From positions 1-35,583 of the IMG/VR virus record IMGVR_UViG_2711768048_000005: DNA of 35,583 bases; one strand, 5' to 3'. The position numbers and the translations under genes are program-made. Below the pieces are notes generated by a model, which saw only the letters and a list, made by a program, of their open reading frames with translations, had not been told where the DNA came from and did no database searches. Each line of letters begins with the position of its first letter. Position 1 is the first letter of the stretch. The stretch comes from a virus. Lineage: Duplodnaviria; Heunggongvirae; Uroviricota; Caudoviricetes. Positions 14,917 to 22,956 of the stretch are shown piece after piece.

Positions 14917-14946
14917 ATAAAAAAGCCCCACCATTAAGGCAGGGCT
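14917..14946 (-). terminator. rho-independent terminator after the tail tube gene and its extension
   Basis: Minus-sense agccctgccttaatggtggggct followed by tttttt. Near-identical to the terminator at 20788-20815. Confidence 0.6.
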
Positions 14947-14951
14947 TAAAA

Positions 14952-15077
14952 TTAATTCTTAGCCTTGCGGCCTCGTTTTGCTGTGGCTTTCGCCGTAACT
15001 TCTTCTACTTCTGGAATCACCACCGCTTCATGTTCCGGTAGTGGTTCCGGTTCTATTAAAGGAAGTTCTTCGTTAGT
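14952..15077 (-). other. in-frame 41-codon extension downstream of the TGA stop of 15078-15551 (candidate read-through C-terminal extension)
   Basis: Translation past TGA (15078-15080) gives TNEELPLIEPEPLPEHEAVVIPEVEEVTAKATAKRGRKAKN, ending at TAA 14952-14954. Shares the VTAKAT-plus-basic-tail ending and a 19-nt identity with 20821-20949. Confidence 0.45.
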
Positions 15078-15551
15078 TCATCCGGCAGTGAAGATTTCCT
15101 GTTTGATCGGCTTTCCGTCCACCGCGAAGGTAAACTCTTTAGTTACCACTTCTTCATCGCCACCGTTCATAGCAACTTTAGAAATAAAGCCGTTGAAAGC
15201 GGTGCGAATACCAGTCTGTTTTGCTGCATCAACATAGTATTCAATCTTGATCTGAATACGAGTACCGTCTTCGGCAGCTTTAATGAGCTTCTCGTGTACC
15301 GCATCGCCAGGAATGTAGTTAACGGTCAGAGTCAGATCAGGAACGTTCAGTTTACCTACCAGCTTACGGTTATACTGAGAAGAGAAGGATTTAACTTCTA
15401 CAGTGCCGCGCTCGATACCAGTTTCAGGAAAACCAGCACACTCTTTAATTTCTTCGTAGCTTTCGTGATTGAGAGCGGTGTTAGTGGTATCGGCGTGATA
15501 GAACAGACTTACCAGACCACCAGTAAAAATATCTTTAAATTGCTGAGACAT
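15078..15551 (-). CDS. putative major tail (tube) protein, 157 aa
   Basis: Small structural protein upstream of the chaperone/tape-measure block, followed by a strong terminator. Ends in TGA where nearly all other genes use TAA. Confidence 0.5.
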   Translation of the reverse strand: MSQQFKDIFTGGLVSLFYHADTTNTALNHESYEEIKECAGFPETGIERGTVEVKSFSSQYNRKLVGKLNVPDLTLTVNYIPGDAVHEKLIKAAEDGTRIQIKIEYYVDAAKQTGIRTAFNGFISKVAMNGGDEEVVTKEFTFAVDGKPIKQEIFTAG

Positions 15552-15608: not shown

Positions 15609-18600
15609 TTATTTAGTTGCTTTCAGCTCGGCAATCTCTTTATGTAATGCTTCGATCTGCGCTTTATATTTGGCGTCCATTTCCTGCATTGCTTTAATAA
15701 TCAGAGCATTGACAGCAGAGTTAGAAATAGTCTTGATTGCTTCTGGATGTTCTGGATCTTCTGTGGATTGAATACCTACTGCTTCCGGCAATACTTTTTC
15801 CAGATCCTGAGCAATAATACCTACTTCGCGTTTAATCACCGTGTCATCGGAAAGAGATTTAACTTTATCGTAGGTGTAGACTTTCAGTGAGTTTACTTTC
15901 TCTAATGCACCGTCCTTTAATTCTTCCTTGTTAATTTTCAAACGGGAGTCAGAGCGAATGTAAACATCGTTAAAGCTACCGTTACGACCTGCGGTAAAGT
16001 CACCAGAGGCGTTAAAGTCAAAGTTAGTATCATGAACATGGAGACGAACAAGAGCGTTACCGATAGTACCGCTAGGAACATGTACACCCATTGCTGCAAT
16101 GTGATATTGACCCCAATGAGTAGCTTTCCAGATGTTATGTGCTGAATCTTTTGATTGGGGGCAATCAACTTGCAAACCGGAAGCACGGTCACGCCAACTA
16201 GACCAGCTACCACCAGAAACGTTACCACGAATCAAACCTTTATCAGATCCACCGACGCTACCAGATTCAAGATGAATCATCTTATCCGCAAGTTTCCACA
16301 CCTGGGCTTGTTTCTGACCACGGAAGCGAATAACACCAGCATCATCGGAATACATCAAACCTAGTTCTAATCCAGTTGGATCTCTAAACCAGATATGCTT
16401 ATTACCAGTGCGACGAAATTCAATATCAGCACCGTTCAAAAGAATATTGCCGCCAGTGTGAATTGCTTGAGGCTTAACAGTACCGTTGATGGCAAACTCA
16501 ATTGCCGTAGTACCCGGACCGCCCGGACGTTGGGTATACCAATGCCAACCACTTTCATCTACACACTCGAAAACCTGTTTACGGGAATCACTATTACCCC
16601 AAGCACGAATATTGAAACTAGAAGTAGCTGTACCCTTACCCCACGTTAATTTTCCTTCGGTAGTTAAATCCCCTCGGAAATGAGCAAGCAAACCACCAGA
16701 TCCGTTGCGTTCAGTGGTAAAGTGAGTTCCGCTAGTGTCCTGGAATTGCAAAACGTTATATCGATCGGCATTACTATTCCCCCAATGGTTAATCGTGAAA
16801 GAATCCATCGACTGATTCCCACCCGCAGAGAAAGTAAGCAATCCTTTTTCTAAGAATACGTTGTTGCTAAAACGGGCAGCACGGCTATCTCTTTCAAGAA
16901 TTAATGCACCTTCGTTACCATCACCGCCTAAAGTAACTTTACCGTTAGTCAAATCGTAAATGAACGGTCTGTTTCCATTCCACCCGCCCAATTTATCATT
17001 TTCGGCAGTAGAAAGAAGATAAACTTTAGTGCCGTCATTACGCCAGAATGCACCATAATTACCGTAGATCATGCGGTAAGCGTCGCTATTCATTGAGATG
17101 AATTGAGCGTTAGTATAAACTCGCTTCATGTTACCTGTCTGAAATTCGATCTGCCCGTCGATGTGGTGACGAATAGAACTACCACCCACATCGCTATACC
17201 ATTCAAAAACGTTAGTATCAGCATTGGCATAACCGATCCAACCTTGACGCGTAATATCTCCAGTCCGGTTATCTTGAAACGCAATGTGGTTAGATTGACC
17301 AGCAGGTCGGCGTAGTGTAATGGCATTAGATCCGCCATTTAACAGCATACGACCAGAAATAATATTACCTTTATGAGTTCCGGCAATTGAGCTACTAGAT
17401 TCAATAGTCATAATTTCCTGAGCATCAGTGCTACCAGTAGCCAGACGATAACTGGAACCTTGAACCGTCTCATGCCAGATCATTTCATTATAGTTACTAC
17501 GGAATTTACGAATATATTTCCGTCCAGTACCTCTATCATTGCTTAGATGAACAATGTCATAGCTGTTTTGTGTATTGTCGTCAAAACTCAACACACCACG
17601 TTTATTTTCTGTATTGAATAGAGTAATGATGCGCCCACCAATAACACCAACAGAAGGTTTAATTAACGTGGCTTCCGGTGTATCGTGAACAGTCAGATTA
17701 ACATAAACACTTTTACCAAATTCAACAATAACGTTATCAGTGTAACGCTGATATTTCACATAAATGTCATAGTTATCACCGGATGTATTGACGGCAAATA
17801 CATCAAAATCTTTGACGGTATTTCGACGATATGCAACTACGTTAAGTCCTTTAGGTCTATCGTTACCACTACGGAGAAGAATTTCTACTACATCAACTTG
17901 GTCATATGCCGTAACGTTGTAACCATTACCACCATGAATACGGAAAAACACACTACGCCCGTTTTGTGGAATTGTTGCGGTTGCCAATTTGAAATATGCA
18001 GATACGTTTTCGCTAGAATTGGGAACAGACATAACGACGTTTTTAACAAACATCTTATCAACTTCGGCTTTGGTGTATGCACCAATCTCGCCAGGAGTCG
18101 GCTTATCACCTTCGTGATACATCTTATAGCTAAAGTTCTTCTGTCCTTCTCTATCAAAACCATAGGTTTCAACACGAGATCCACCAGACGCATAACGGAA
18201 AGTAAATCCGCGACCGTGCGCTTTACCGGAAGAGTGAGGAACGTTAAGAGTTAGATCCATGAGTCCATCTTGACCATTGGTACGGAAAGCACCAAAGTAG
18301 TTAAGATCTCTCGCTGTCTGGTCTTCCAAATAGTTAGCTGTCTTGCTTAACAGATACCCACCATGCTTAGTATTGGTATTCTTCTTGATGTAAGCAGCAT
18401 CGGCACTACCTTCAATAGAATCAATTCGCTGGTTAGTTGCGGCAATTGCGGCATCGGCACTGGCCTTGTTATTTGCAACAGTTCTTTCAATGGCTGTCTT
18501 ATTCGCAGAGACCGTACTAGTAAGATTGGTGATCTTCGTGTCCGCATCTTTCTTATTATCCGCTACCGTCTTTTCTATTGCTGATTTATTTGCTGAGACA

Positions 18601-19139
18601 GTATTCGTTAAGTTAGTAACGTTGGTATTAGTCTGATCAACTCGTGCATTAATATCTGTCTTGTTCTTGTTAATTGTTGCGTTGATAGTATCGCGGGTTG
18701 AAGTAATAGTCTGATTCAGTTCAGTCTTAGCAGCCGCCAGAGCGTTAGCCGCTTCGGTTTTATTGTTACCTACTGTGGTAGTCAAAGCATCAATTCGTTT
18801 GTTGGCTGCGGTGTCGCCAGCAGTGATTGAAGCATTGAGAGCATCACGGGTAGAAGTGATAGTCTGATTCAGTTCAGCTTTAGCACTAGCCAGATTATCA
18901 GCAGCTTCTTTCTTATTTGCTGCAATAACCTTATCTGTGTTGGCCTTGTTGGTGTCTACTTTCGTATTCAGTTCAGCGTGTTTTTCTGGAGAAACACTAA
19001 TTTGAACTACGTTATTATTTTTGTCTTTGGTGTAAATCACATGATCCGCCAGTTGTAAGGCGATCTCACCCTGTGATAATTGTTCCGGCGTTGGTTTTTT
19101 ACCAGCCGTTTGTGTGCGTTTAAATTGGATCGACTGCAT
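15609..19139 (-). CDS. long tail fibre (L-shaped-fibre-like) with C-terminal intramolecular chaperone-like domain
   Basis: 1176 aa. N-terminal repeated heptad-like segments (NQTITSTRD..., TNLTSTVSANKTAIERTVANNK). The C-terminal ~130 aa (SDSRLKINKEELKDGALEKVNSLKVYTYDK...) resemble the self-cleaving chaperone domain of endosialidase-type fibres. Confidence 0.75.
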   Translation of the reverse strand: MQSIQFKRTQTAGKKPTPEQLSQGEIALQLADHVIYTKDKNNNVVQISVSPEKHAELNTKVDTNKANTDKVIAANKKEAADNLASAKAELNQTITSTRDALNASITAGDTAANKRIDALTTTVGNNKTEAANALAAAKTELNQTITSTRDTINATINKNKTDINARVDQTNTNVTNLTNTVSANKSAIEKTVADNKKDADTKITNLTSTVSANKTAIERTVANNKASADAAIAATNQRIDSIEGSADAAYIKKNTNTKHGGYLLSKTANYLEDQTARDLNYFGAFRTNGQDGLMDLTLNVPHSSGKAHGRGFTFRYASGGSRVETYGFDREGQKNFSYKMYHEGDKPTPGEIGAYTKAEVDKMFVKNVVMSVPNSSENVSAYFKLATATIPQNGRSVFFRIHGGNGYNVTAYDQVDVVEILLRSGNDRPKGLNVVAYRRNTVKDFDVFAVNTSGDNYDIYVKYQRYTDNVIVEFGKSVYVNLTVHDTPEATLIKPSVGVIGGRIITLFNTENKRGVLSFDDNTQNSYDIVHLSNDRGTGRKYIRKFRSNYNEMIWHETVQGSSYRLATGSTDAQEIMTIESSSSIAGTHKGNIISGRMLLNGGSNAITLRRPAGQSNHIAFQDNRTGDITRQGWIGYANADTNVFEWYSDVGGSSIRHHIDGQIEFQTGNMKRVYTNAQFISMNSDAYRMIYGNYGAFWRNDGTKVYLLSTAENDKLGGWNGNRPFIYDLTNGKVTLGGDGNEGALILERDSRAARFSNNVFLEKGLLTFSAGGNQSMDSFTINHWGNSNADRYNVLQFQDTSGTHFTTERNGSGGLLAHFRGDLTTEGKLTWGKGTATSSFNIRAWGNSDSRKQVFECVDESGWHWYTQRPGGPGTTAIEFAINGTVKPQAIHTGGNILLNGADIEFRRTGNKHIWFRDPTGLELGLMYSDDAGVIRFRGQKQAQVWKLADKMIHLESGSVGGSDKGLIRGNVSGGSWSSWRDRASGLQVDCPQSKDSAHNIWKATHWGQYHIAAMGVHVPSGTIGNALVRLHVHDTNFDFNASGDFTAGRNGSFNDVYIRSDSRLKINKEELKDGALEKVNSLKVYTYDKVKSLSDDTVIKREVGIIAQDLEKVLPEAVGIQSTEDPEHPEAIKTISNSAVNALIIKAMQEMDAKYKAQIEALHKEIAELKATK

Positions 19140-19218: not shown

Positions 19219-20052
19219 TTAGTATTCGCCGAAATCGATCCGGTCAGTCTTAGCCACTGCGCCAATTTCGCTAGGTGTCGGTTTCTCATTGGAGGAATAT
19301 ACCTTGATCCATTCAGAGCGACCGTTTTCCTGAATATTTCGGACGCGTAAACGTGGTGCGCCAGAAGTATTACAGGTTAATTGCCATGCGCCATGCTCAT
19401 CAGCTTGAAGGTGAATTAATGCTGTGTCGGTTGAATATGGATTACCGCTAGCAGTTCCCTTGTAAGTTACGAAACGGTTTCCGGCTAATGCCTCGCTATC
19501 AATCGGACCCGTGAATGGATTTACACCAGCACCCAAACCAAAATCACCCTGACGTAAGATCCGGCCTTCGGTAGCAATACCCCTTGCCAAAATCCCGCCA
19601 TCTGGTTCAAGTTTAAATTCCAGTGTTACAGCTTTGTTATCTGCGCCACGGGTTTTGTGACTAGTGACATAAGCGTCATAGATGACATAGTAACCAGTGT
19701 TAGCAGCACTATAGCCAGAGTTCACAACATAGAACATACGGAAGCGTAAAGGTGTTTTATCCTCTACCGCTTTCATCAACATTGCTTGATGTTCATCGTC
19801 AAGAACACGGTTTAATGTGAGTGTTGTCGGTTCCAGTCTACGATAACCAGCAAGTTTCCCCGTAGCGTCCTGATCGTACTCTTCCAGAGTTTCTATCTCT
19901 GTGGATTCGGTTAGCGTAGGGAATGCTGCGATGTTCTCCATAGAACTAAAGCTAGGATCGAAAAAGTCGACCTGATTGTCTATCTGGTTAGAGATCGACA
20001 CTTCAACATGTGATCCAGTGAAAATATCTAAGTTATCTTGTGTAATATTCAT
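19219..20052 (-). CDS. tail/fibre-associated structural protein (277 aa)
   Basis: Shares a KPTPxEIGA motif with the long fibre (KPTPSEIGAV here, KPTPGEIGAY in the fibre). Position between head-tail connector genes and the fibre. Confidence 0.45.
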   Translation of the reverse strand: MNITQDNLDIFTGSHVEVSISNQIDNQVDFFDPSFSSMENIAAFPTLTESTEIETLEEYDQDATGKLAGYRRLEPTTLTLNRVLDDEHQAMLMKAVEDKTPLRFRMFYVVNSGYSAANTGYYVIYDAYVTSHKTRGADNKAVTLEFKLEPDGGILARGIATEGRILRQGDFGLGAGVNPFTGPIDSEALAGNRFVTYKGTASGNPYSTDTALIHLQADEHGAWQLTCNTSGAPRLRVRNIQENGRSEWIKVYSSNEKPTPSEIGAVAKTDRIDFGEY

Positions 20053-20061
20053 TATTACCCC

Positions 20062-20532
20062 TTAAAAACGCGCTAGATAAGAAAATTTAAGGCTAAGTGT
20101 CCCAACGATACCCCCATCACTAGAATCATCGTCATAATCGGTATTAGAGGCTACTGGAGTGATATCTGAAATAGAGAAGCCCAAATCTTTAAATCGTGGG
20201 TTATCCGGCTGAATCTGGATTATCTGGCAAATACCCTCATGAATTTTCGTTTCATGAATCTGAGAATATAACTGCATTTCGATAACGCATTCAGCTTGGA
20301 TTGCATTACCGCCACGAACACGCGTATAAGTTTCATTCATTCCAGTAATCCAACAAACCACATCATCACTAAAGCCTTGCTGAGTTTGTTCTACGTTTAA
20401 AGCCAGACCTAAATCTTGTTCGATAATATCTTGCAAGGCGCGTTTGATTTTCAGTCTAGGCATGTTATTAACGGTAGCGAGCATGTGTACCCCCTGCCAG
20501 AGTAATAAAGCAATCAGTGGTATTATCACCAT
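20062..20532 (-). CDS. head-tail connector / tail completion protein (positional call)
   Basis: Small ORF between capsid and tail genes. Track start overlaps the upstream gene, so the true start is probably internal. Confidence 0.35.
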   Translation of the reverse strand: MVIIPLIALLLWQGVHMLATVNNMPRLKIKRALQDIIEQDLGLALNVEQTQQGFSDDVVCWITGMNETYTRVRGGNAIQAECVIEMQLYSQIHETKIHEGICQIIQIQPDNPRFKDLGFSISDITPVASNTDYDDDSSDGGIVGTLSLKFSYLARF

Positions 20533-20787: not shown

Positions 20788-20815
20788 CAAAAAAGCCCCA
20801 CCGTTAGGCAGGGCT
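20788..20815 (-). terminator. rho-independent terminator after the capsid gene and its extension
   Basis: Minus-sense agccctgcctaacggtggggc followed by tttttt. Near-identical to 14917-14946. Confidence 0.6.
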
Positions 20816-20820
20816 AATTA

Positions 20821-20949
20821 TTATTCTTTAGTTTTACGTTGTTTTTTAACTGTGGCTTTCGCCGTAACCGTCTGGGAATCTTCTTCCGGTTTAGGAATCA
20901 GATTTTCTTCCCCCAAATCGGGGGAAGGTTCAGAAGGTTCTACGCTAGT
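20821..20949 (-). other. in-frame 42-codon extension downstream of the TGA stop of the capsid gene (candidate read-through C-terminal extension)
   Basis: Translation past TGA (20950-20952) gives TSVEPSEPSPDLGEENLIPKPEEDSQTVTAKATVKKQRKTKE, ending at TAA 20821-20823. Same TGA-ACT-A context as the tail tube gene. Confidence 0.45.
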
Positions 20950-22956
20950 TCAGTCAGCGGAGATGTGAAGAACTTTCAGCGCTTCCGGCTGGGTTACAAC
21001 GTAATCCAGATCTACCCAGATACGCGGAACGATAGCAGACTGTGCGCGGTAGGTAGTGTCATCAATGTCAAGTTCCAGACCACCCCATTCACCGATGGTA
21101 ATAGCGTCGAACGATCCCAGAACGATGTGGTCTACCGGAATAACACCTGAAGTAACTACGTCGTAACCAGCCAGTTTACCGTTTTCGATGATATAACCGG
21201 AAACACCGTTATCTTTCAGGGTAGATTCCAGTTCAGCAGCAGTTGCACCGCTCATTGCAAACTTGATCGCCTGAGCAGGAACGCCAGCGTCGGTCAGTTT
21301 AGCAATTTCTTTCAGGAAGTCTTTATAAGAGAAAGCAGCTTTCTTCTCTACGCGACCAGCATCTACCAGTTGTTTAATCACACCAGCCGGACCACGAGCA
21401 TTTTCTTTATCGGACAGAATCAGTTGTTCCAGTTTGATGCGAACAGCCTGGTTAATGTGATCAGTGATCAGGGTAGCGATCCCAGGAACGGTCTTGAGGC
21501 TAGCCCTAGAAATTGGGTTGCCACCAGCAAAAGTTTTCGGAGCCATTTTCACGTTCGCAAATTCGGCTTTACCTTCCGGTGCAGCACCGTTTTCATCAAC
21601 GAAGCCGAAAGATTCAACGCTAGAAGCGGTCATTTTCGGAATAGCGGTCGGCGAAGTCAGACCAGACAGGACTTTCACACCCAGACGACCCAGAACGGAT
21701 TCCGGCATCAGCATCGCTACATAGGAATCATTCAGCAGTTTTTCGTCAGTTACAGCGGTCAGAGTAGCTTTGGTGTTACCATCAGCAGCAGCACGCATAG
21801 CAGCAGTAGGAACGAATACGGAGCCACCGCGAGCAGCACGACCACGCTGCATAGTTGCAGTAGCAGCCATTGCAGAAAACTCGGCTTCGTTAGCACCCAG
21901 AGCTTCACCATCTACCAGAGAGCGAATTACGTTGTTCAGGTCAAAAGTTTTTTCCATTTTAGAGTCCTTAATTTGTTGTTCGTTATTACGTTGAGCATTG
22001 GTAATGTTATTTAGTGCCTTAGTGCGGAATGCTTCCGGCGTCATGTCTTTAATTGCCAATGCGCGTTCTAATTCTTCGTCGTTAATATTTAGTTCGCGTG
22101 CAATTTCGCGAATTTCTAATTCGTCTTCTTCGGAACGTTCAGCCACTTCCTCGTTTTTTTCTTCTTCAACCGGAGCGGCTTCACGTTCTTCTTTTACTTC
22201 TTCTGTTTCCCGAACAGTTGAACTATCATCATCAACACTTTCAGGATGTTCAGCGTCTTTTCCGTCTTCGAGATTTTCATCTTCTTTATTCTCTTCAACT
22301 TGGCGCTCTTGAGTTTCTTCAACTTCCGATTCTTTATTTTCTTCTACCGGAGTTTCTTCAACCTGAGCGGATTCTTGTTCTTCTTTGATTTCTTCAATTT
22401 GTTCTTTAGTCATATCGCGTTTAGCCTCCAAATTAACTGTGATAGTATTTAGAGAGCGATTTAAACCGACCGTATCGTCTGCGGGAACGGTGACAAATGA
22501 GAGTTCATAGGGTGCCCACTTAGTAACAATCAATTGCCCTTTGGCGTAATCGATGTGATATTCTTTAATGTCATAGCCGACAGAAATTTTTTCCATCGTA
22601 CCTTCAATGACTTTATTACGAACATCATTAGCCAAAGTGCCATGTTTAGAGAATTTAACCAGAGCACGGCCTACGTTATCCGCATCGATTCGAGCGTCGC
22701 AGACTACACCTAAATGATTATCGAAATTATGATTGAACAGCAACGGAGCGTTATTATTCAGACGAGACAGATCAACCGCTTCCGGTGTATGTACCAGAAT
22801 TTCATCTAATACCACCATTTCTTGATTTTGCTCATCCCAGAATTGGCGCTGATAAGGCTGTTCACTGGAGAAAGCAATTTCAAATTCGTATTGATCATTA
22901 TGCCCTTCGTTAATAACTCCACCGTAACCGTTAAGATCGCGGCGAAATTTAAGCAT
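20950..22956 (-). CDS. prohead protease - acidic scaffold-like linker - HK97-fold major capsid protein fusion
   Basis: 668 aa. The N-terminal ~180 aa carry HK97-type prohead protease features (LLFNHNFDNHLGV, ELSFVTVPAD). The middle is an acidic E/K-rich low-complexity region. The C-terminal ~300 aa look like a major capsid protein. Ends in TGA. Confidence 0.8.
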   Translation of the reverse strand: MLKFRRDLNGYGGVINEGHNDQYEFEIAFSSEQPYQRQFWDEQNQEMVVLDEILVHTPEAVDLSRLNNNAPLLFNHNFDNHLGVVCDARIDADNVGRALVKFSKHGTLANDVRNKVIEGTMEKISVGYDIKEYHIDYAKGQLIVTKWAPYELSFVTVPADDTVGLNRSLNTITVNLEAKRDMTKEQIEEIKEEQESAQVEETPVEENKESEVEETQERQVEENKEDENLEDGKDAEHPESVDDDSSTVRETEEVKEEREAAPVEEEKNEEVAERSEEDELEIREIARELNINDEELERALAIKDMTPEAFRTKALNNITNAQRNNEQQIKDSKMEKTFDLNNVIRSLVDGEALGANEAEFSAMAATATMQRGRAARGGSVFVPTAAMRAAADGNTKATLTAVTDEKLLNDSYVAMLMPESVLGRLGVKVLSGLTSPTAIPKMTASSVESFGFVDENGAAPEGKAEFANVKMAPKTFAGGNPISRASLKTVPGIATLITDHINQAVRIKLEQLILSDKENARGPAGVIKQLVDAGRVEKKAAFSYKDFLKEIAKLTDAGVPAQAIKFAMSGATAAELESTLKDNGVSGYIIENGKLAGYDVVTSGVIPVDHIVLGSFDAITIGEWGGLELDIDDTTYRAQSAIVPRIWVDLDYVVTQPEALKVLHISAD

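Follow-up and report, generated by a model that had tools for sequence, protein, structure and literature searches.

Why does the tail tube gene of an Escherichia coli prophage stop at TGA, in a genome where most genes end in TAA, and then stay open in the same frame for 41 further codons, up to a TAA placed just before a terminator? The question is raised by IMG/VR record IMGVR_UViG_2711768048_000005, a tailed-phage (Caudoviricetes) sequence of 35,583 nucleotides (nt) that was analysed over its whole length and is called the window below. The major capsid gene of the same window ends in the same manner. The stop codon, the open extension and the terminator are referred to together as the cassette. 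Comparison of the two copies with those of related prophages suggests that programmed UGA read-through probably adds a disordered peptide, composed of an acidic linker and a basic tip, to a small share of the capsid and tube subunits. The same codons also form a conserved RNA structure, and the observations that speak for and against translation have to be weighed together with the rival explanations.

Two gene ends with one cassette

The product of the 157-amino-acid (aa) gene (15081–15551, on the minus strand like all cassette features described here) is a lambda-type tail tube protein with a gpV-like tube domain. It matches PF16460 at 29.1 bits (cut-off 28.4) and phrog_158 at 8.7e-22, and its AlphaFold2 (AF2) model aligns over the entire domain with the tube domain of lambda gpV (7t2e; Foldseek, E=4e-7). 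The gene stops at a TGA (15078–15080) in a UGA-A context (15077–15080; UGA ACU). Behind it, an extension open reading frame (ORF) of 41 codons in frame 0 (14955–15077), TNEELPLIEPEPLPEHEAVVIPEVEEVTAKATAKRGRKAKN, encodes an acidic Pro/Glu linker and then a basic tail, KRGRKAKN, and is closed by a TAA (14952–14954). An intrinsic terminator with a 10-bp stem and a U-tract (14923–14947) lies 4 nt 3' of this TAA, and G-U pairs make it strand-specific.

The second copy follows a 668-aa fusion of prohead protease and major capsid protein (20953–22956), which matches PF04586, PF05065, phrog_617 and the solved capsid 8gta. Its TGA (20950–20952; UGA-A context 20949–20952) precedes a frame-0 extension ORF of 42 codons (20824–20949), TSVEPSEPSPDLGEENLIPKPEEDSQTVTAKATVKKQRKTKE, closed by a tandem TAA TAA (20818–20823). 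The terminator that follows (20794–20815) is nearly identical to that of the tube gene. Besides the terminators, the two downstream regions share TGA-ACT-A and an identical 19-nt core, GTTACGGCGAAAGCCACAG, which occurs in the window only at 14981–14999 and 20850–20868, where chance would predict no such repeat. In the tube copy, GUUACGGCGAAAGCCACAG, the core encodes VTAKAT. The linkers are about 50% identical in nucleotides, with several indels, yet both are open and alike in composition.

Both extension stops lie 4–8 nt 5' of a terminator, and these two terminators are the strongest in the structural operon and the top-ranked minus-strand terminator-like sites in the structural region. The 39 non-overlapping ORFs of the window end in 33 TAA, 4 TGA and 2 TAG, with the tube and capsid genes accounting for two of the four TGA, and the median in-frame open run past a stop codon is 7 codons. 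The original prediction, made from the letters alone, had described a tube gene ending in TGA where the others mostly use TAA, 41 open codons up to a TAA and a terminator, the same arrangement at the capsid gene, a shared TGA-ACT-A with a 19-nt VTAKAT core, and linkers that differ in nucleotides and keep their amino-acid character. This description was borne out throughout, with the core confined to its two sites. A single window of this kind is only mildly unusual; judged on comparative sequence data, the cassette is far beyond chance.

Those data come from the relatives of the window, which is an E. coli prophage whose 8.7-kb structural segment has matches of 85–95% identity in 56 of the 5,426 complete E. 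coli genomes searched. Lysogens include E. coli H2 (NZ_CP028733) and CE0007a (NZ_CP119011), the latter with an identical tube cassette. Related loci were drawn from E. coli genomes and from contigs with a tube homologue, as well as from IMG/VR, once through the 19-nt core and once, independently of that core, through capsid homology. A search of related phages for the same cassette had been proposed, and roughly 100 related prophage loci yielded about 45 distinct variants. Four sequence classes and five tail types can be told apart among the distinct cassettes, and recombination among them is visible as mosaics. The cassette stands in frame and with zero spacer behind three gene ends, namely those of the tube gene, capsid type A and capsid type B, the last of which is only about 39% identical to the window capsid in the C-terminal domain. 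In relatives without the extension, TAA or TAA TAA closes the tube or capsid gene at the homologous position, and another terminator follows; at one such junction, FTAG followed by TGA corresponds to FSAE followed by TAA TAA. A contig search with the capsid alignment added only 12 distant relatives (25–45% identity), none with an extension.

Among isolated phages (INPHARED), no close relative of the window prophage was found, except for a gp37-like fibre gene, and therefore no virion proteomics for the lineage turned up. A literature search found no paper on this prophage lineage. PGAP and RefSeq annotations (L001–L005, L164–L169) end both genes at the TGA and leave 150–190 nt unannotated. A TAC-like gene downstream is sometimes labelled 'cytochrome' in RefSeq, which looks like a misannotation.

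Two further observations concern the parts of the cassette. Capsid genes that lack it (L009, L213/L214; Salmonella and others) end in short constitutive basic tails, ...VEASKAK* and ...AEAKSKA*, reminiscent of the extension motif VTAKATAKK. The terminator stem, AGCCCTGCC...GGTGGGGCTTTTT, recurs far above chance in IMG/VR (L062–L159), in more than 118 viral contigs that are mostly unrelated and in many cases come from environmental metagenomes, and many copies follow a sequence that translates as ...NSTSLY*. Scanning IMG/VR by the terminator pattern revealed no new cassette type among these contigs. In one locus (L016), a third copy of the terminator follows another gene, without an extension.

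An open frame and an RNA fold over the same codons

Across the approximately 45 distinct variants, the extension frame contains no in-frame stop, and frames +1 and +2 hold two to four each. Extension lengths fall into nine classes of 84–135 nt (28–45 codons), every one a multiple of three. The original prediction had named frameshifts or stops in homologues as the sign of a mere 3' element; the homologues carry no stops, and their indels are all in frame. The context TGA-A is invariant wherever the extension is present, in at least 17 distinct tube cassettes and at least 29 distinct capsid cassettes, those behind capsid type B among them, and the sequence after the TGA is ACT or AAT.

Codon usage points in the same direction. 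Scored on the phage's own genes, frame 0 of the extension gives log2-odds of 0.31–0.45 per codon in all four sequence classes, indistinguishable from the 0.34 +/- 0.18 of real coding sequence (CDS) windows, and the other frames and intergenic DNA score negative. Single-nucleotide codon variants comprise 30 synonymous and 39 non-synonymous changes (30/69, with 23% synonymous expected), and the tail part alone has 7 synonymous against 5 non-synonymous changes (7/12). The tube extension has a pN/pS of 0.46 and the capsid extension one of 0.69.

The same stretch is strongly structured as RNA. Compared with dinucleotide shuffles, folding of the tube and capsid extensions gives z=-4.2 and z=-4.5, and the 36 distinct variants folded all lie between -1.2 and -6.2, whereas CDS windows average -0.18. 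Structures were read from minimum free energy (MFE) folds of each sequence; RNAalifold missed the large helix on the tube alignment because the linker classes are unalignable. The common architecture consists of the UGA, a 10-nt spacer, a closing helix with the GUU of the core at the end of its 3' arm, and, two nucleotides past this helix, the mini-hairpin GGC-GAAA-GCC of the GNRA type, which is carried by the core at both genes. In the window, the extended stem-loop of the tube cassette occupies 14997–15067 and that of the capsid cassette 20866–20939, each starting 10 nt past the UGA. The helix begins at this distance in 18 of 23 capsid-long variants, in 12 of 14 tube type-1 variants and in 5 of 5 folded capsid-short variants. 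The remaining five capsid-long variants have an additional outer helix, and the tube type-2 fold (L043) shows the same architecture.

The helix is built from different sequences. Five versions of its two arms occur: AACC.UUCUG/CAGA.CGGUU, AACCUU.../...AGGUU, AACUUC/GAAGUU (the version of the window's tube cassette), AACAACC/GGUUGUU and AAUUGCCGGAA/UUCCGGUAGUU. Within the capsid stem-loop, the hairpin CUUCCCCC-GAUUU-GGGGGAAG (20907–20927) has an 8-bp stem that is invariant across variants and a loop that exists in four versions; a second hairpin (20877–20904) has five loop versions. Among the codons of the invariant stem are CCC and GGG, both rarely used in E. coli. In the capsid-long class, 23 of 49 unpaired columns vary, compared with 5 of 56 paired ones (p=1.5e-5), and for third codon positions the figures are 8/16 unpaired and 2/19 paired (p=0.02). 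Covariation is absent inside one class because the stems never vary. Two compensatory changes are seen, each as a single event: GGC/GCC to GGA/UCC in the core mini-hairpin, and GGUGG/CCACC to GGCGG/CCGCC in a tail hairpin. The original prediction had set a 3' untranslated region (UTR) against a coding extension and had missed this conserved structure overlapping the ORF.

Read-through weighed against its rivals

That the extension is translated by read-through was the central claim of the original prediction, and it was supported, with caveats: the frame is open, codon usage is gene-like and the TGA appears only together with the extension, but the third-position excess of an ordinary gene is missing. 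This last point is the first of several that weigh against read-through. Diversity by codon position is flat in the extension (0.036/0.065/0.074), whereas the adjacent capsid CDS shows the normal excess at third positions (0.06/0.07/0.30). The flatness is attributed to the conserved RNA structure that overlaps the ORF, and by itself the substitution pattern, as read from these sequences, does not establish coding and fits constraint at the RNA level. The variants are kin and recombinant, hence their counts are not independent, and the absence of stops among the 69 single changes has a probability of only 0.045. A database search revealed no protein, in any lineage, with a sense codon in place of the TGA. 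Cassette-free relatives look like intact prophages, and the extension is therefore dispensable and accessory. The closing helix is absent from the MFE fold of two tube cassettes that are recombinant or variant (L164, L006). Stimulators of recoding in bacteria usually act over a spacer of 5–9 nt, and the 10 nt of the cassette are longer. Finally, the capsid gene of one distant relative, from Edwardsiella, carries its copy of the peptide, VIPTGREEVSVKSGRKPKTDN, in the -1 frame.

The Edwardsiella tarda prophage (L007/L008, 3760–3860 and 10490–10530) also bears on the question from the other side. A homologous peptide, VIPEAVAAKEK (...NVIPEAVAAKEK), is fused there straight to the tube protein, with no stop in between. 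The capsid gene of this prophage ends ...AAG CAA GGG TGA, and the -1-frame peptide VIPTGREEVSVKSGRKPKTDN* stops directly before the terminator. This capsid copy could be either decayed or dependent on a frameshift.

Other routes to a longer protein were examined and set aside. A search for fused capsid proteins found none, with a weak query whose upstream part was taken from the alignment consensus. A 198-aa 'fused' tube protein (P0001) is an artefact of the gene caller, which used code 4 on DNA that still reads TGA; it lies on L006 (ENA contig ERZ27280761 k141_243218), a short E. coli phage contig on which the TGA is read as Trp. Code 4 was likely chosen because the extension looks coding. 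Independent initiation within the extension was rejected, as there is no conserved in-frame start and conservation begins at the first codon after the TGA. Frameshifting at a slippery site is ruled out by an extension that lies in frame 0 directly after the TGA, with the Edwardsiella capsid as the sole -1 case. Rfam gave no family and no selenocysteine insertion sequence (SECIS) element on the cassettes, at the gathering threshold or at E<=10. Selenocysteine insertion was discarded on this missing SECIS match and on the variation of the sequence 3' of the UGA between cassette classes. ARAGORN found no suppressor tRNA in the window. Its call of a 91-nt tRNA-Glu (UUC) at 20207–20297 on the plus strand, antisense to a 156-aa head-tail gene, is probably a false positive with no bearing on UGA decoding.

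The rival that survives best holds that the cassette is a structured, untranslated 3' UTR that stabilises mRNAs, binds a protein or yields a 3'-derived small RNA, its open frame being an ancestral relic. A strong conserved fold with invariant stems, variable loops and compensatory changes is what such an element would show, as is the lack of a third-position excess, and the terminator always travels with the cassette. Left unexplained are the in-frame indels and the lack of stops in a frame that is rich in GAA and AAA and thus prone to them, the gene-like codon usage in four sequence classes, the synonymous enrichment, the strict TGA where TAA is usual, and the zero-spacer, in-frame junctions with three gene ends. 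No Rfam family was matched either. We therefore regard an untranslated element as unlikely.

A second rival resembles attenuation. The peptide would be a by-product, and a ribosome reaching the TAA would mask or melt the terminator, so that transcription of downstream minor-protein genes is coupled to read-through. In its favour, the extension stop always lies just 5' of a terminator that belongs to the cassette, the genes followed by a cassette are precisely those of the two most abundant proteins, and the amino-acid constraint is weak; an open frame with good codon usage would be needed in any case. The geometry is less favourable, as 5–11 nt separate the first stop from the stem and a terminating ribosome, to judge from its footprint size, would cover a few stem bases at most. 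Nor does coupling account for an acidic-then-basic character that is kept across unrelated nucleotide solutions, for the synonymous enrichment of the tail, or for an Edwardsiella tube protein that bears the peptide constitutively. This scheme seems distinctly unlikely. A recent duplication, in which the tube gene received a copy of the capsid 3' region and too little time has passed for the variants to gather stops, would suit the near-identical terminators, the identical core, the low within-class diversity and the visible mosaics, but is very improbable given linkers that have diverged to about 50% with several indels and are still open with the same composition, four sequence classes and five tail types that without exception stay in frame, a cassette behind capsid genes only 39% identical, and the codon-usage signal.

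Known recoding systems and the setting of the cassette

Programmed read-through, the reading preferred here, would make the cassette a portable module for recoding, joined directly to the codon at which a strongly expressed gene for a virion polymer naturally ends. The majority of ribosomes would terminate at the UGA through RF2. A minority would decode it with a near-cognate tRNA, presumably Trp-tRNA competing with RF2 (PMC10570021), as in Qbeta, and run 28–45 codons further, up to the strong TAA that directly precedes the terminator. In each virion, a few subunits of capsid and tube would be prolonged by a disordered C-terminal peptide, an acidic Pro/Glu spacer ending in a Lys/Arg tip that is AT-hook-like (GRPPK) in some variants. 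The RNA fold may tune or stimulate read-through, or it may stabilise the 3' end of an mRNA that is mostly untranslated at this point.

The peptide itself is predicted to be disordered. In the AF2 model of the extended tube protein, residues 159–198 have a pLDDT (predicted local distance difference test) below 50 and no secondary structure, and Pfam gave no domain at threshold on the extension peptides, whether Ig-like or FN3. The tail KKVGRPPKAK of relatives scores 13.3 bits against the AT-hook family PF02178, below the cut-off of 17.4 bits (E=0.078), and the window tails KRGRKAKN and KKQRKTKE give no match to it. The tube domain aligns with the whole tube domain of gpV, and the extension therefore exits where the outward Ig-like domain of lambda does. 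By this analogy, the peptide on the tube is expected to be exposed on the virion surface. The Ig-like domain of lambda gpV likewise leaves a homologous tube domain at its C-terminus, outside the tail, but it is constitutive, folded and present on every subunit. The role of the peptide may be weak electrostatic adhesion to polyanionic surfaces, or another low-copy decoration.

The closest parallel is the A1 protein of phage Qbeta, whose leaky stop reads UAU UGA ACA (record AB971354). As in Qbeta, a capsid protein of an E. coli phage would be extended here at low frequency by UGA read-through, in frame 0 and in the same UGA-AC context, and the A1 extension starts with a Pro-rich flexible segment that resembles the linker of the cassette. 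Qbeta is, however, an RNA levivirus with a folded extension of 195 aa and an annotated minor protein. The cassette belongs to a tailed double-stranded DNA (dsDNA) prophage, encodes a peptide of 28–45 aa that is predicted to be disordered, serves two genes and includes a 3' stem-loop and a terminator in the unit.

Among tailed phages, the same gene pair is recoded in Listeria phages A118, A500 and PSA, in which the capsid (cps) and tail (tsh) proteins are extended by +1/-1 frameshifting (PMC5009743). The likeness lies in the recoding of both the major capsid and the major tail protein within one phage; the difference is that the Listeria phages shift into another frame, whereas the cassette continues in frame 0 behind a stop and is short and unstructured as a peptide. 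Minor frameshift-extended forms of capsid or tube proteins, often with Ig-like or FN3 domains, are also made by T7 (gp10A/10B), T3 (capsid), Lactobacillus phage A2 and SPP1 (gp17.1*) (PMC5009743). These mostly add folded domains, in contrast to a cassette peptide that has no Pfam domain and is disordered in AF2. Non-homologous recombination is thought to spread such extensions, with chance deciding whether they are expressed in frame or through recoding (PMC5009743), and the in-frame and -1-frame copies of Edwardsiella fit that picture.

For the RNA structure, the nearest likeness is found in eukaryotic viruses. UGA read-through in alphaviruses, furoviruses, tobraviruses and coltiviruses is stimulated by an extended 3' stem-loop (Firth et al. 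2011, PMC3159437), with a spacer of 7–9 nt, arms around a less conserved region of about 100 nt, and synonymous conservation by the stop (PMC3159437). The cassette is similar in its 10-nt spacer, in arms that enclose 26–75 nt and in the suppression of variation at synonymous sites. The viral stimulators differ in acting on eukaryotic ribosomes and in the contexts UGA-C or UGA-CGG.

Structure-stimulated read-through in bacteria has, to our knowledge, no precedent besides SECIS. We also know of recoded C-terminal extensions of phage structural proteins only by frameshifting in tailed phages and by read-through in RNA phages. Within the literature covered by a full-text search, stop-codon read-through that makes capsid or tail-tube variants in tailed phages is unreported. 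A more ambitious version of the proposal is possible, if doubtful: a mobile module of UGA-A, spacer, stem-loop, GNRA hairpins, stop and terminator, whose RNA stimulates read-through and which thereby installs a low-copy, AT-hook-like polycationic tether on the heads and tails of a temperate siphophage, serving its adhesion to polyanionic surfaces.

Within the lambda-like tail module, which is of siphovirus type, the two genes of a T-even-type long tail fibre pair stand on either side of the tube gene, on the minus strand. Upstream is a gp37-like distal fibre gene of 1176 aa (15609–19139, minus), about 80% identical in nucleotides to RB49-group phages, and downstream of the tube cassette is a gp38-like adhesin gene of 168 aa (PF21721; 14397–14903, minus). 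Relatives carry a different fibre cassette here, with fibres of the Peptidase_S74 or pyocin-knob type. Just upstream of the fibre gene, a second tube-like protein of 277 aa (19219–20052, minus) is encoded in all relatives. It matches phrog_158 'major tail protein' over the first 150 aa and has an extra C-terminal region; it may be a fibre-anchoring or neck protein.

If programmed read-through is true of this lineage, a dsDNA tailed phage employs stop-codon read-through, and does so on two genes at once. About 1% of complete E. coli genomes would then encode a virion component that current annotation overlooks. The cassette would also constitute a ready-made low-copy display site on capsid and tail. 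Moreover, it would offer a natural bacterial test bed for 3' RNA structures that modulate UGA termination, as they do in eukaryotic viruses, and, should the structure-aided form of the module hold, it would be the first bacterial structure-assisted read-through signal outside selenocysteine.

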